Positions 48,410 to 51,400 of a DNA stretch of 64,000 nt are shown here, in pieces. The DNA comes from Candidatus Magasanikbacteria bacterium GW2011_GWC2_37_14. GTDB taxonomy: Bacteria; Patescibacteriota; Patescibacteriia; Magasanikbacterales; UBA922. The stretch covers positions 40,316-104,315 of the forward strand of contig LBSX01000008.1 of the NCBI GenBank assembly GCA_000990355.1, read 5' to 3'. The translations under genes were made by a program, and so were the position numbers. Every line of letters begins with the position of its first letter. The first letter of the stretch is position 1. The notes beneath the pieces are model-generated. The model did not search any database. It saw nothing but the letters and a program-made list of their open reading frames with translations, and was not told the origin of the DNA.

Positions 48410-51400
48410 CTTTAAGAGCATATGGTGGATGCCTAGACACTGTTAGGTCGATGAAGGACGTAGCAACCTGCGATAAGCCCCGGGGAGGTGGTAAGCAACC
48501 TTTGATCCGAGGATTTCCGAATGGGGGAACCCTCCCGATACGAAAGCATCGGGAACTTCATACTGAATTCATAGGTATGTAGAGAGCACCTGGTGAAGTG
48601 AAACATCTCAGTAACCAGAGGAACAAAAAGAAACCAAAAGACCATTTTTTTCACACTAATCTTCTCCGATGTTTAATCGGGGTCGATTAGTGTCGAAGAC
48701 TATGGTTTCGATTCCCTAAGTAGTGGCGAGCGAAAGGGGAAAAAGCCCAAACTTATATCGTGTTGTACTTGGAAAAATTTGTCGCAAGACTTGTTGTACT
48801 TTGTACATAAAGGACAGGCCGTTGCGGTATAAGTGTTATAGGAAGTTAACGTCGGCTACCTGCTATGCCGGCCGGAATATAATATTTGTATAGTTGAAGA
48901 CTCTTGGAACAGAGCACCAAAGAAGGTGATAGTCCTGTAAATAAAATACATATTATATACGGTGTTTAATTTTCCTGAGTACGGCGGAACACGTGAAATT
49001 CCGTCGGAAGTCAGGCCGACTATGGCCTAAGGCTAAATACCAACAGTGATCGATAGTGAACGAGTACCGTGAGGGAAAGGTGAAAAGCAGCCCGGAGAGG
49101 GCGATGAAATAGTATCTGAAACCATATGCTTACAATGAGCAGGAGCCCCGTTCGCGGGGTGACTGTGTTCCTATTGAAGAATGAGCCTGCGAGTGTGTGT
49201 GTGTTGCAAGCTTAAGGACTTATGGTCCGGAGGCGTAGGGAAACCGAGTCTTAACGGGCGTTAAGTAGCACATACATGACCCGAAACCGGGTGAGCAATC
49301 CATGACCAGGATGAACCTTGAGTAAAATCAAGGGGAGGTCCGAACCCACGCACCGTGCAACATGCGGGGATGAGTTGTGGATAGGAGAGAAATTCTTATC
49401 GAACTCGGTAATAGCTGGTTCTCCTCGAAATATATTTAGGTATAGCTGGTATGATCCCTCTGGGGGTAGAGCACTGGATGAGAGCGAGGTCCGCAAGGAT
49501 ACTCCTTTCAATCAAACTCCGAATACCAGAGATTAGAGTACGCAAGTCAGACGGCGGGGGCTAAGCTTCGTCGTCAAAAGGGAAACAGCCCAGATCACCG
49601 ACTAAGGTCCCTAAATTACTACTAAGTGTAAAAGGTGGTGTTAATTCTCATACAACCAGGATGTTGGCTTAGAAGCAGCCATCATTTAAAGAAAGCGTAA
49701 TAGCTCACTGGTCAAGAGTTTTCGCGCCGAAAATGTACCGGGGCTAAGTAGTATACCGAAGTCGTGAATGTAGGTAAGCTTAGGCGAACCTACGTGGTAG
49801 AGGAGCTTTCCAAACAGCAGTGAAGCTGGATCCGTGAGGATTGGTGGAGCGTTTGGAAGTGAGAATGCAGGCACAAGTAGCAAAAATGCCGGTGAAAGTC
49901 CGGCACGCCGAAAACCCAAGGTTTCCAGGGCAACGTGAATCGTCCCTGGGTTAGTCGATCCTAAGGCCAGGCCGAAAGGCGTAACCGATGGAAGAGCAGG
50001 TTAATATTCCTGCACTTGGTATAGTTTGTTGTTGTATGTACATGTCGAGTGTTTAAGCGTTTTTTGGCTATAAACGTTTCGCAAGATAAAGATGAAGCCC
50101 TCGGGCAACGTCAATTTAAGTGCAATTCGTGTCTAGAAAAGTACAATAACGTTAGGCTATATCAATCCGTACCGCAAACCGACTCAGGTGGGCAGGTCGA
50201 GTAGACCAAGGCGGACGAGAGAAACATTGTTAAGGAACTCTGCAATTTAGCGGCCGTAACTTCGGGATAAGGCCTCCCCACGCAAGTGGGGCGCAGCTAA
50301 AGACCTCATGCGACTGTTTACCAAAAACACAGCTCCCTGCAAAAGCGCAAGCTGAAGTATAGGGAGTGATGCCTGGCCAGTGTCAGAACGTTAAAGGGAG
50401 AAGTCAATTCCTTCGGGAAGGCAGCTTTGATCTGAAGCGCTGATGAACGCCGGCGGTAACTATAACCGTCCTAAGGTAGCGAAATTCCTTGTCGGGTGAG
50501 TTCCGACCCGCACGAATGGCATAACGGTGTGAGAAGATGCGACGTACCCGCAACTAGACGAAAAGACCCCATGAAGCTTTACTATAGTTTGATATTGGTA
50601 TATTACCTCGTTTGTTCAGTGTAGGTGGGAGCCGAAAGGCGCCAATGAGACACCACCCTTGCGCTGTGATATACCTAATCTCCCGACTTGAATCAGCCGG
50701 GGGAGACAGTATCTGATGGGTAGTTTAACTGGGGCGGTTGCCTCCCAAAATGTAACGGAGGCGTTTACAAAGGTCAGCTTGGTCCGGATGGAAATCGGAC
50801 TGGACGTGCAAACGCAGTGGAAGTTAGTGATCCGACCGTACGATATAGGACGGCGGAAGCTCAACGGATAAAAGCTACTCTGGGGATAACAGGCTGATCG
50901 CGCCCAAGCGTCCACAGCGACGGCGCGGTTTGGCACCTTAACAAAATCGGGGTGCACCAACAGTGATGTTGTTCCAAAATCTTTTCGTTAATAATTTAAT
51001 TATAGATAGAGACAAAATAAAATCGGCTTATAACGGAGAACCCGTCACCACGAAAATGGACATTGTCACATCGTGGCCGGCAACCCCGTGGGAAGTCTGC
51101 GCTTAATCGGCGCATGACCCTGTAACGACTGACCCGAAAGGGAAGATCCTGAGCGAATCTTGAGCGTAAGCGAAAGAGGAGTCGAAGGATAACACGCCGA
51201 CTCTTGCTAAGTCAAACTGAGATCATGTCCGCCAGTGGGCGGACTAAAATCCAGAGCAAGATGAAGATATAGTCTGCGCCATATGAAAGTATGGAAAATA
51301 GTACGATGTCGGCTCATCGCATCCTGGGGCTGGAGAAGGTCCCAAGGGTTAGGCTGTTCGCCTATTAAAGCGGTACGTGAGCTGGGTTCAGAACGTCGTG

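Follow-up and report, generated by a model that had tools for sequence, protein, structure and literature searches.

In the accessible part of the survey by Tsurumaki et al. (2024, PMC11270868), the 23S ribosomal RNA (rRNA) genes of the candidate phyla radiation (CPR) hold 433 group I introns, 222 of them without an open reading frame (ORF), clustered round the peptidyl-transferase centre. A 2026 survey (PMC13011429) calls such introns conserved across the phylum. They first came to notice in the Rifle genomes. Here we describe an element of this kind, an insert at position 2500 of the 23S rRNA gene of Candidatus Magasanikbacteria bacterium GW2011_GWC2_37_14, together with the family of introns related to it. 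The insert lies in a stretch of 64,000 nucleotides of contig LBSX01000008.1, called the window below. Host group and gene region are those of the surveyed introns, and the window comes from the same aquifer project (PRJNA268031): a 726-aa protein of the window is also encoded on groundwater contigs of that project, in two ENA assemblies and one JGI assembly, and these contigs match the window without a difference over about 12 kb. In our family, as in the accessible part of that survey, ORF-less forms and forms with a LAGLIDADG gene share one site and are highly similar outside the ORF. A 23S group I intron in a CPR bacterium is an ordinary element of a known kind. The sole part for which we found no description is a terminal A that runs through the family; our coverage of the literature on site-2500 and CPR introns is incomplete, and no priority can be claimed for it.

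Introns resembling the window family in gene region or in site are known from other sources. The cyanobacterial L2593 introns (PMC1995217) also lie in domain V of a bacterial 23S rRNA and likewise have a short P2 and a P7.1/P7.2 extension, but their site is another one, their LAGLIDADG genes are of the single-motif kind, and no deviation from the canonical 3' end is reported for them. The insertion site itself is shared with organelles: GISSD holds 22 green-algal mitochondrial and plastid introns between positions 2500 and 2501, all assigned to subgroup IB4 (PMC3873408). Many of these encode LAGLIDADG endonucleases. Whereas they are reported as IB4, the window family is IA-like (P2, P7.1, P7.2); to judge by these published and observed architectures, two separate lineages probably use this site.

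The canonical end of a group I intron is a guanosine, omega-G, regarded as universal and as essential for the second splicing step. Exceptions have been recorded. A self-splicing intron without canonical omega-G in the 23S gene of Coxiella burnetii is cited by title in the accessible part of PMC11270868. Like the window intron, it interrupts a bacterial 23S gene, belongs to group I and has a last base other than G; it differs in its site (1917 as opposed to 2500) and in its architecture, and it is a single case from one species, whereas the terminal A of the window family is common to at least 20 species-level genomes. This intron, Cbu.L1917, reportedly belongs to subgroup IB2, ends in A and self-splices, as Raghavan and colleagues are said to have found in 2007. 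Coxiella-like endosymbionts also carry members of the window family, one ending in A (locus L115) and one in G (locus L013). The hexacoral ND5-717 intron lacks the conserved terminal G as well, yet its exons are perfectly ligated in vivo (PMC6545197); it differs from ours in its location, a mitochondrial protein gene, in its giant size and in the genes that it contains, and the two share no sequence relationship. By analogy with these two precedents, introns that end in A would be able to complete splicing.

An intron at U2500 of the 23S rRNA gene

The conserved sequence GGCACCT terminates at 50938 and CGATGTCGG begins at 51304 (sequence inspection), which leaves 365 nt (50939-51303) inserted in the 23S rRNA gene. 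Aligned to E. coli K-12 rrlH, our reference for numbering, T50938 is position 2500 and C51304 position 2501; a position within the intron plus 50938 gives the window coordinate. The insert therefore sits in a universally conserved loop at the centre of domain V, the peptidyl-transferase loop, where the first-pass annotation of the window had placed it. That annotation gave the span as 50938-51303: its end is right, but 50938 is the last base of the exon, and the intron starts at 50939. The boundaries cannot slide, because the universal exon sequence sets T against A on one side and T against C on the other.

An empty site is available in L245, a contig of GCA_964592785.1, whose 23S gene shares about 91% identity with the one in L240. 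L240 is a second, independent assembly from the window's own organism. L245 reads GGCACCTCGATGTCGG without interruption, and its alignment to the window breaks exactly between 50938 and 51304, so that the insert is fixed as precisely 50939-51303. This comparison with a related 23S gene is the check that had been proposed for the 3' boundary, and it confirms a boundary between 51303 and 51304; together with the exon sequence it also upholds the claim that the exons, once rejoined, give back the universal sequence without any change. L240 carries an identical insert of 365 nt with the same terminal A, and the intron sequence, including its last base, is therefore no one-off error. The ORF listing shows none longer than 47 aa inside the insert, which agrees with the earlier statement that a homing-endonuclease ORF is lacking; the internal endonuclease ORF that marks a mobile intron is absent here. 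We also considered an intervening sequence processed by RNase III and rejected it, because the insert sits in the conserved domain V loop and its ends join P1/P10 and P9.0, with no terminal stem.

The insert belongs to group I. In a local search of 441 nt, Rfam Intron_gpI (RF00028) matched 50983-51295 over its full model (1-253) with an E value of 2.3e-9. To collect homologues, we searched prokaryotic genomes, one from each species, for 23S genes with a base other than C after GGCACCT. At least 119 loci were found. All counts of inserts and family members that follow are among the matches listed: the insert could be delimited at the site in 36, 25 of which are clear relatives of the window intron, and four more loci (L016, L019, L035, L089) have the same intron 5' end but run off the locus. 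The family, as the term is used here, comprises 26 members, the window intron and these 25 relatives. Alignment A1 holds 20 sequences (the window intron and 19 relatives, with a median core identity of about 68%).

On this alignment we drew by hand a fold of 52 pairs, made up of P2, P3, P4, P5, P6/6a, P7, P7.1, P7.2, P8/8a and P9, with P3 and P7 forming a pseudoknot. In A1, 97.3% of the cells are paired in this fold, versus 34-42% when the structures are slid by 1-3 columns; compensatory change is seen in 31 of the 52 pairs, and no shuffle out of 500 does as well. In the intron of the window itself, every one of the 52 pairs is a standard pair. The minimum free energy (MFE) fold gives P2, P5a, P6, P7.1, P7.2, P8 and P9 (z = -3.4). 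A P3-P9 fold, without which the first-pass annotation would have given up its group I assignment, is accordingly present, pseudoknot included, and that assignment is borne out by the covarying P2-P9 structure and the Rfam match. Since P7.1 and P7.2 lie between P7 and the 3' strand of P3, both with compensatory changes, the architecture is IA-like. Taking these results together, we consider it highly probable that the insert is an ORF-less, IA-like group I intron at U2500/C2501 of a Rifle-aquifer CPR bacterium, and that it is spliced out. Its elements, with pairing and compensatory changes as seen in A1, and the two rRNA genes are as follows.

48400..51687, + strand: 23S rRNA gene (Rfam LSU_rRNA_bacteria, 2147 bits, full length)
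50933..50938, + strand: 5' exon strand of P1 (GCACCU); U2500 is 50938, the U of the 5' splice site
50939..51303, + strand: ORF-less intron of 365 nt (Rfam, empty site, identity with L240, ORF listing)
50946..50949, + strand: P10 guide AUCG; pairs with CGAU of the 3' exon and directly abuts P1
50950..50955, + strand: internal guide sequence GGGUGC, the intron strand of P1; G50950 wobbles with U2500
50958..50971, + strand: P2 hairpin with a GNRA loop (GUGA); 5 pairs, 4 of them compensatory, 99% paired
50980..51012, + strand: P2.1-like extension; a hairpin of the MFE fold, in a subset of the family only and absent in 7 aligned members
51023..51027, + strand: P3 5' strand UCGGC; pairs with GCCGA at 51196-51200, 100% paired, 3 of 5 pairs compensatory
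51034..51088, + strand: P4-P5-P5a domain with A-rich J4/5 and J5/4 (covariation alignment, MFE fold)
51090..51121, + strand: P6/P6a/P6b; 100% paired, P6b a short hairpin in the window intron
51125..51131, + strand: P7 5' strand ACGACUG with bulged C51126; pairs with UAGUCU at 51270-51275
51133-51142, + strand: P7.1 (CCC-GAAA-GGG); 96.7% paired, 2 of 3 pairs compensatory
51146-51190, + strand: P7.2; 95% paired, 3 of 4 pairs compensatory
51196..51200, + strand: P3 3' strand GCCGA (covariation alignment)
51203..51260, + strand: P8 and inner helices, including GGACTAAA at 51241-51248
51261..51275, + strand: J8/7 (AUGAAGAUA) and P7 3' strand UAGUCU; C51274 pairs with G51127
51276..51277, + strand: P9.0 5' strand GC; pairs with GU at 51301-51302
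51279..51294, + strand: P9 hairpin with a GAAA loop; 6 of 6 pairs compensatory
51303, + strand: terminal nucleotide (omega), A (empty site, P9.0 and P10 registers, L240)
51304..51307, + strand: 3' exon strand of P10, CGAU; C2501 is 51304
51751-51857: 5S rRNA gene, downstream of the 23S gene

The helices at the two splice sites are those that had been read from the sequence at first pass. P1, with U·G at the splice site, joins GCACCT (50933-50938) to GGGTGC (50950-50955), and GGGGUGC is invariant across A1. P10 joins ATCG (50946-50949) to CGAT (51304-51307); this helix has 4-6 contiguous pairs in each of the 26 family members, whose guide sequences are of several kinds. Within the core, the three pairs of P4 are invariant, P5 is 100% paired with 2 compensatory pairs, and P5a is taken from the MFE fold. 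The endonuclease gene of the long family members, or what remains of it, maps to the P6 part of the alignment. P8 is 95.8% paired with 4 compensatory pairs, and P8a 94.8% paired with compensatory change in 5 of 5.

In P7, the pairs G-C, A-U, C-G, U-A and A-U are each invariant in 20 of 20 sequences, as are G51127-C51274, in the place of the guanosine-binding pair, the bulged C51126 next to it and A51125-U51275. The P7/J8-7 signature proposed at first pass holds for one half, AGATATAGTCTG at 51266-51277, with AAGATATAGTCT invariant or nearly invariant in A1. The other half fails, because GGACTAAA, which had been taken as the P7 partner, is the 3' strand of the inner P8 hairpin. The pseudoknot requires the 5' strand of P7 to lie upstream of the 3' strand of P3; ACGACUG (51125-51131) fits, and it pairs in 20 of 20.

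The terminal A and the proposed splicing of the intron

Because the exons are restored exactly, the last intron base must be A51303, and omega-G is absent. Four lines of evidence set this register: the empty-site alignment, the universal exon sequence, the register of P10, and P9.0. The same UA end is found in 20 of the 26 family members, and the remaining six end in G. Two of the G-ending introns (L013, L085) have the P9 module of the A-ending ones, whereas the other four (L003, L025, L065, L107) have a different ...CGACAG tail. Among the matches listed, the 10 introns at site 2500 that belong to other sequence classes each end in G. In the A-ending members the first pair of P9.0 is G·U or A-U and the second C-G, or U-A in L026 and L061, and both pairs form in 19 of the 20. 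A pattern scan of metagenomes for further 3' junctions (TGGAN{5,9}CGATGTCGGC) gave 120 matches, all of them fortuitous hits in high-GC coding DNA and none of them an intron.

In a rough neighbour-joining tree the G-ending members do not stand apart from the A-ending ones but fall among them, which points to several switches or to exchanges of 3' modules. Across the family, we found no change in the G-binding pair, the P7 flanks or the length of P10 that tracks terminal A versus G. The terminal A is kept across roughly 30-45% divergence of the core sequence and in two host phyla, being found in Patescibacteria and in a Coxiella-like endosymbiont. It is possible, and we propose it tentatively, that the RUA-ending lineage at site 2500 is a natural group I family in which A has replaced G as the normal 3' end while the G-C pair of P7 stays intact.

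From these sequence features we infer how splicing would proceed, by the canonical transesterification in two steps, and how the terminal A would be used. The intron would fold within the precursor rRNA, with P1 (GCACCU/GGGUGC) presenting the U2500·G wobble. Exogenous guanosine, held at the invariant G51127-C51274 pair of P7, would attack after U2500. P10 (AUCG/CGAU) and P9.0 (51276-77 with 51301-02) would then position the 3' splice site for reaction in the active site, and the 3'-OH of U2500 would attack the bond after A51303, ligating the exons to the universal GGCACCUCGAUGUCGG and releasing the intron; the junction would read GGCACCU followed directly by CGAUGUCGG. Exon ligation would rely mainly on positioning by P9.0 and P10, possibly with a host factor, as would have to be the case for the A-ending intron of Coxiella burnetii and for ND5-717. 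These two elements matter only for ligation, yet they are kept and covary, which suggests that ligation is under selection in the family. Given the location of the insert, splicing would be obligatory for ribosome function.

Several observations weigh against the reading favoured here. In the covariance-model check that had been suggested at first pass, E value and model coverage speak for group I, but the score of 41.6 bits is under the curated gathering score of 50, and the match is absent from the gathering-threshold scan of the window. The intron ends in A51303 where omega-G is expected, while the G-binding pair is unchanged, and in the Tetrahymena ribozyme exon ligation suffers strongly when omega is changed from G to A. 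Two stretches are missing from the window's 23S gene, 42 nt before 50533 (E. coli 1987-2028; L240 12871-12912) and 45 nt before 50816 (E. coli 2333-2377; L240 13196-13240), and in the form given by this record the gene may not be functional. Weaker is the result of a lookup in a collection of 15 billion proteins, in which an antisense ORF of 105 aa across the spliced junction is absent in its exact form, a lookup that is sensitive only if the transcript was assembled and gene-called. The unspliced antisense version of 116 aa is present in the same collection, and a protein of 105 aa with two residues different comes from GCA_964592785.1; the closest relatives of the spliced-junction ORF are the intron-less 23S genes of related organisms.

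The most serious rival accepts the group I fold and denies a continuous rRNA: with the terminal A blocking the second step, the intron would be retained in the mature 23S rRNA, or excised without ligation to leave a break between 2500 and 2501. There is a precedent for an unspliced 23S group I intron in Simkania L1931, cited by title in the accessible part of PMC11270868. The lack of omega-G beside an unaltered G-binding pair and the missing spliced-junction product also speak for it. However, the site is the central loop of the peptidyl-transferase centre, where an insert of 365 nt, or a nick, is hard to reconcile with function. P10 and P9.0, which serve ligation only, are maintained, and P9.0 covaries over the 20 A-ending members. 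Moreover, in an obligate endosymbiont of ticks whose genome measures 1 Mb, the A-ending L115 interrupts a 23S gene that must work if it is the sole copy, and A-ending group I introns elsewhere ligate their exons in vivo (PMC6545197). We regard this account as unlikely.

Less likely still is a defect or an assembly error in the gene copy as a whole, with the intron a relic that decays because selection no longer acts on it. It would explain why the window's 23S gene lacks the 42 nt and the 45 nt, and also one base at 49449 (L240 11786), all present in L240. But L240, otherwise identical, has the missing segments together with an identical intron, so the deletions belong to the record and not to the organism; the absence of any nonstandard pair from the modelled fold and the intact P1, P10 and P9.0 also speak against decay. 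The two long segments consist of conserved rRNA sequence, and the alignment of L245 to L240 runs through them with no large gap. To judge from these alignments, the gaps are probably an assembly artefact in the window's source that leaves the intron untouched.

The most improbable of the three alternatives takes G51301 as the true omega-G, with splicing after it and an extra UA between U2500 and C2501 in the mature rRNA. A G does stand at -3 in 17 of the 20 A-ending members. In L026 and L061, however, this base is an A that covaries with its J7/9 partner (U-A for C-G), as expected of a member of the P9.0 pair and not of omega. P10 abuts P1 in a register that starts the 3' exon at C2501, the G-ending L013, L085 and L003 have their G directly before CGATG, and the intron-less L245 has no UA at the site. 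We therefore retain an intron that ends at A51303 and whose exons would be joined at U2500 and C2501.

Endonuclease genes, hosts and other features of the window

Two family members carry intact LAGLIDADG_2 genes, the A-ending L095 and the G-ending L003, and these genes are 70% identical to each other. The same gene is broken across three frames in L013 and reduced to short N-terminal remnants in L115 and L117. The family shows the usual cycle of homing endonuclease gain, decay and loss. The window intron has lost its endonuclease, and would therefore now be inherited vertically or mobilised only in trans. The endonuclease frame of L095 and L003 crosses the ribozyme core at P3-P5, and the corresponding part of the ORF-less window intron (50963-51106, + strand) still 'encodes' SAYNGEPV, which is due to conservation of the RNA alone.

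As the first-pass annotation had noted, a free-standing LAGLIDADG gene lies roughly 9 kb from the intron: an ORF of 222 aa with two motifs (41476-42144, + strand), 8.8 kb upstream. We rejected a link between the two, since this ORF belongs to LAGLIDADG_3 and the genes of the family to another Pfam subfamily, LAGLIDADG_2, with no specific similarity between them. Its similarity to PDB 2DCH, a putative archaeal homing endonuclease, is weak. At its 3' end it shares 37 nt with the 5' half of a tRNA-Leu(TAG) gene (42108-42192). In the accessible part of Tsurumaki et al. (PMC11270868), LAGLIDADG_3 occurs in CPR only inside 16S insertions, and a free-standing copy beside a tRNA gene is slightly odd given that record.

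The A-ending members are found mostly in Patescibacteria. Outside that phylum, L115 (6723-7170, − strand, NZ_CP084737.1) is an A-ending copy of 448 nt in the complete 1-Mb genome of the Coxiella-like tick endosymbiont strain 580, and L013 (6863-7694, + strand) is a G-ending copy of 832 nt, with the frameshifted LAGLIDADG_2 gene, in the Coxiella endosymbiont of Ornithodoros amblus. A number of loci come from metagenome-assembled genomes (MAGs) labelled 'uncultured Gammaproteobacteria' (L006, L024, L040, L053, L097, L101 and others). Their 23S genes are 73-77% identical to that of E. coli and, in most cases, 81-84% identical to that of the window; judged by these identities, the contigs look like mislabelled or misbinned Patescibacteria. 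For the window's 23S gene the nearest sequences, at 77-80% identity, are loci labelled Paceibacter or Magasanikbacteria and several MAG loci with the gammaproteobacterial label, whose own 23S genes resemble the window's more than that of E. coli. On these grounds we take the host to be a Patescibacteria-like CPR bacterium.

Three MAG 23S genes recovered by the scan (L047, L071, L080) have no insert, and in them GGCACCT is followed by A or T, not by the universal C2501 (AGATGTCGG or TGATGTCGG); these changes are either real variants or sequencing errors. The 23S gene of L243 (NZ_LR782232.1, E. coli SC467) is annotated at 2878 nt and lacks about 26 nt around 1962-1988 relative to K-12.

Elsewhere in the window's 23S gene, domain I has two insertions relative to E. 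coli, one of 72 nt (about 48634-48707, near position 231) and one of 121 nt (about 48760-48880, near position 281). Both are also present in L240 and are not group I introns; they are probably expansion or intervening sequences. The Rfam scan of the window found no 16S gene in the 48 kb upstream of the 23S and 5S genes, and the rRNA genes are therefore unlinked. Three assemblies have a gene of 462 aa called at an ORF of 1.3 kb (39985-41297, + strand), a stretch that is open on both strands and matches nothing in Pfam or Rfam. The ORF lies in a region of 44% G+C (the 40001-42000 bin) in a gene-dense genome of about 36% G+C, and may be a recent acquisition.

Implications of a terminal A

The exceptions to omega-G that we traced are single cases, whereas here at least 20 diverged sequences share a terminal A. 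Annotation tools that demand a G at the end will set the 3' limit of these introns in the wrong place. The family offers a ready comparative set for ribozyme biochemistry, with A-ending and G-ending sisters in the pairs L115/L013 and L095/L003, and this set could address both ligation without omega-G and the protection of an essential rRNA from side reactions. If the terminal A is selected, exon ligation in these introns would be independent of canonical omega-G recognition, and driven by P9.0 and P10 or assisted by protein. Were this true, the A might serve to suppress hydrolysis at the 3' splice site, circularisation of the intron, or its reverse splicing into the active centre of the ribosome.

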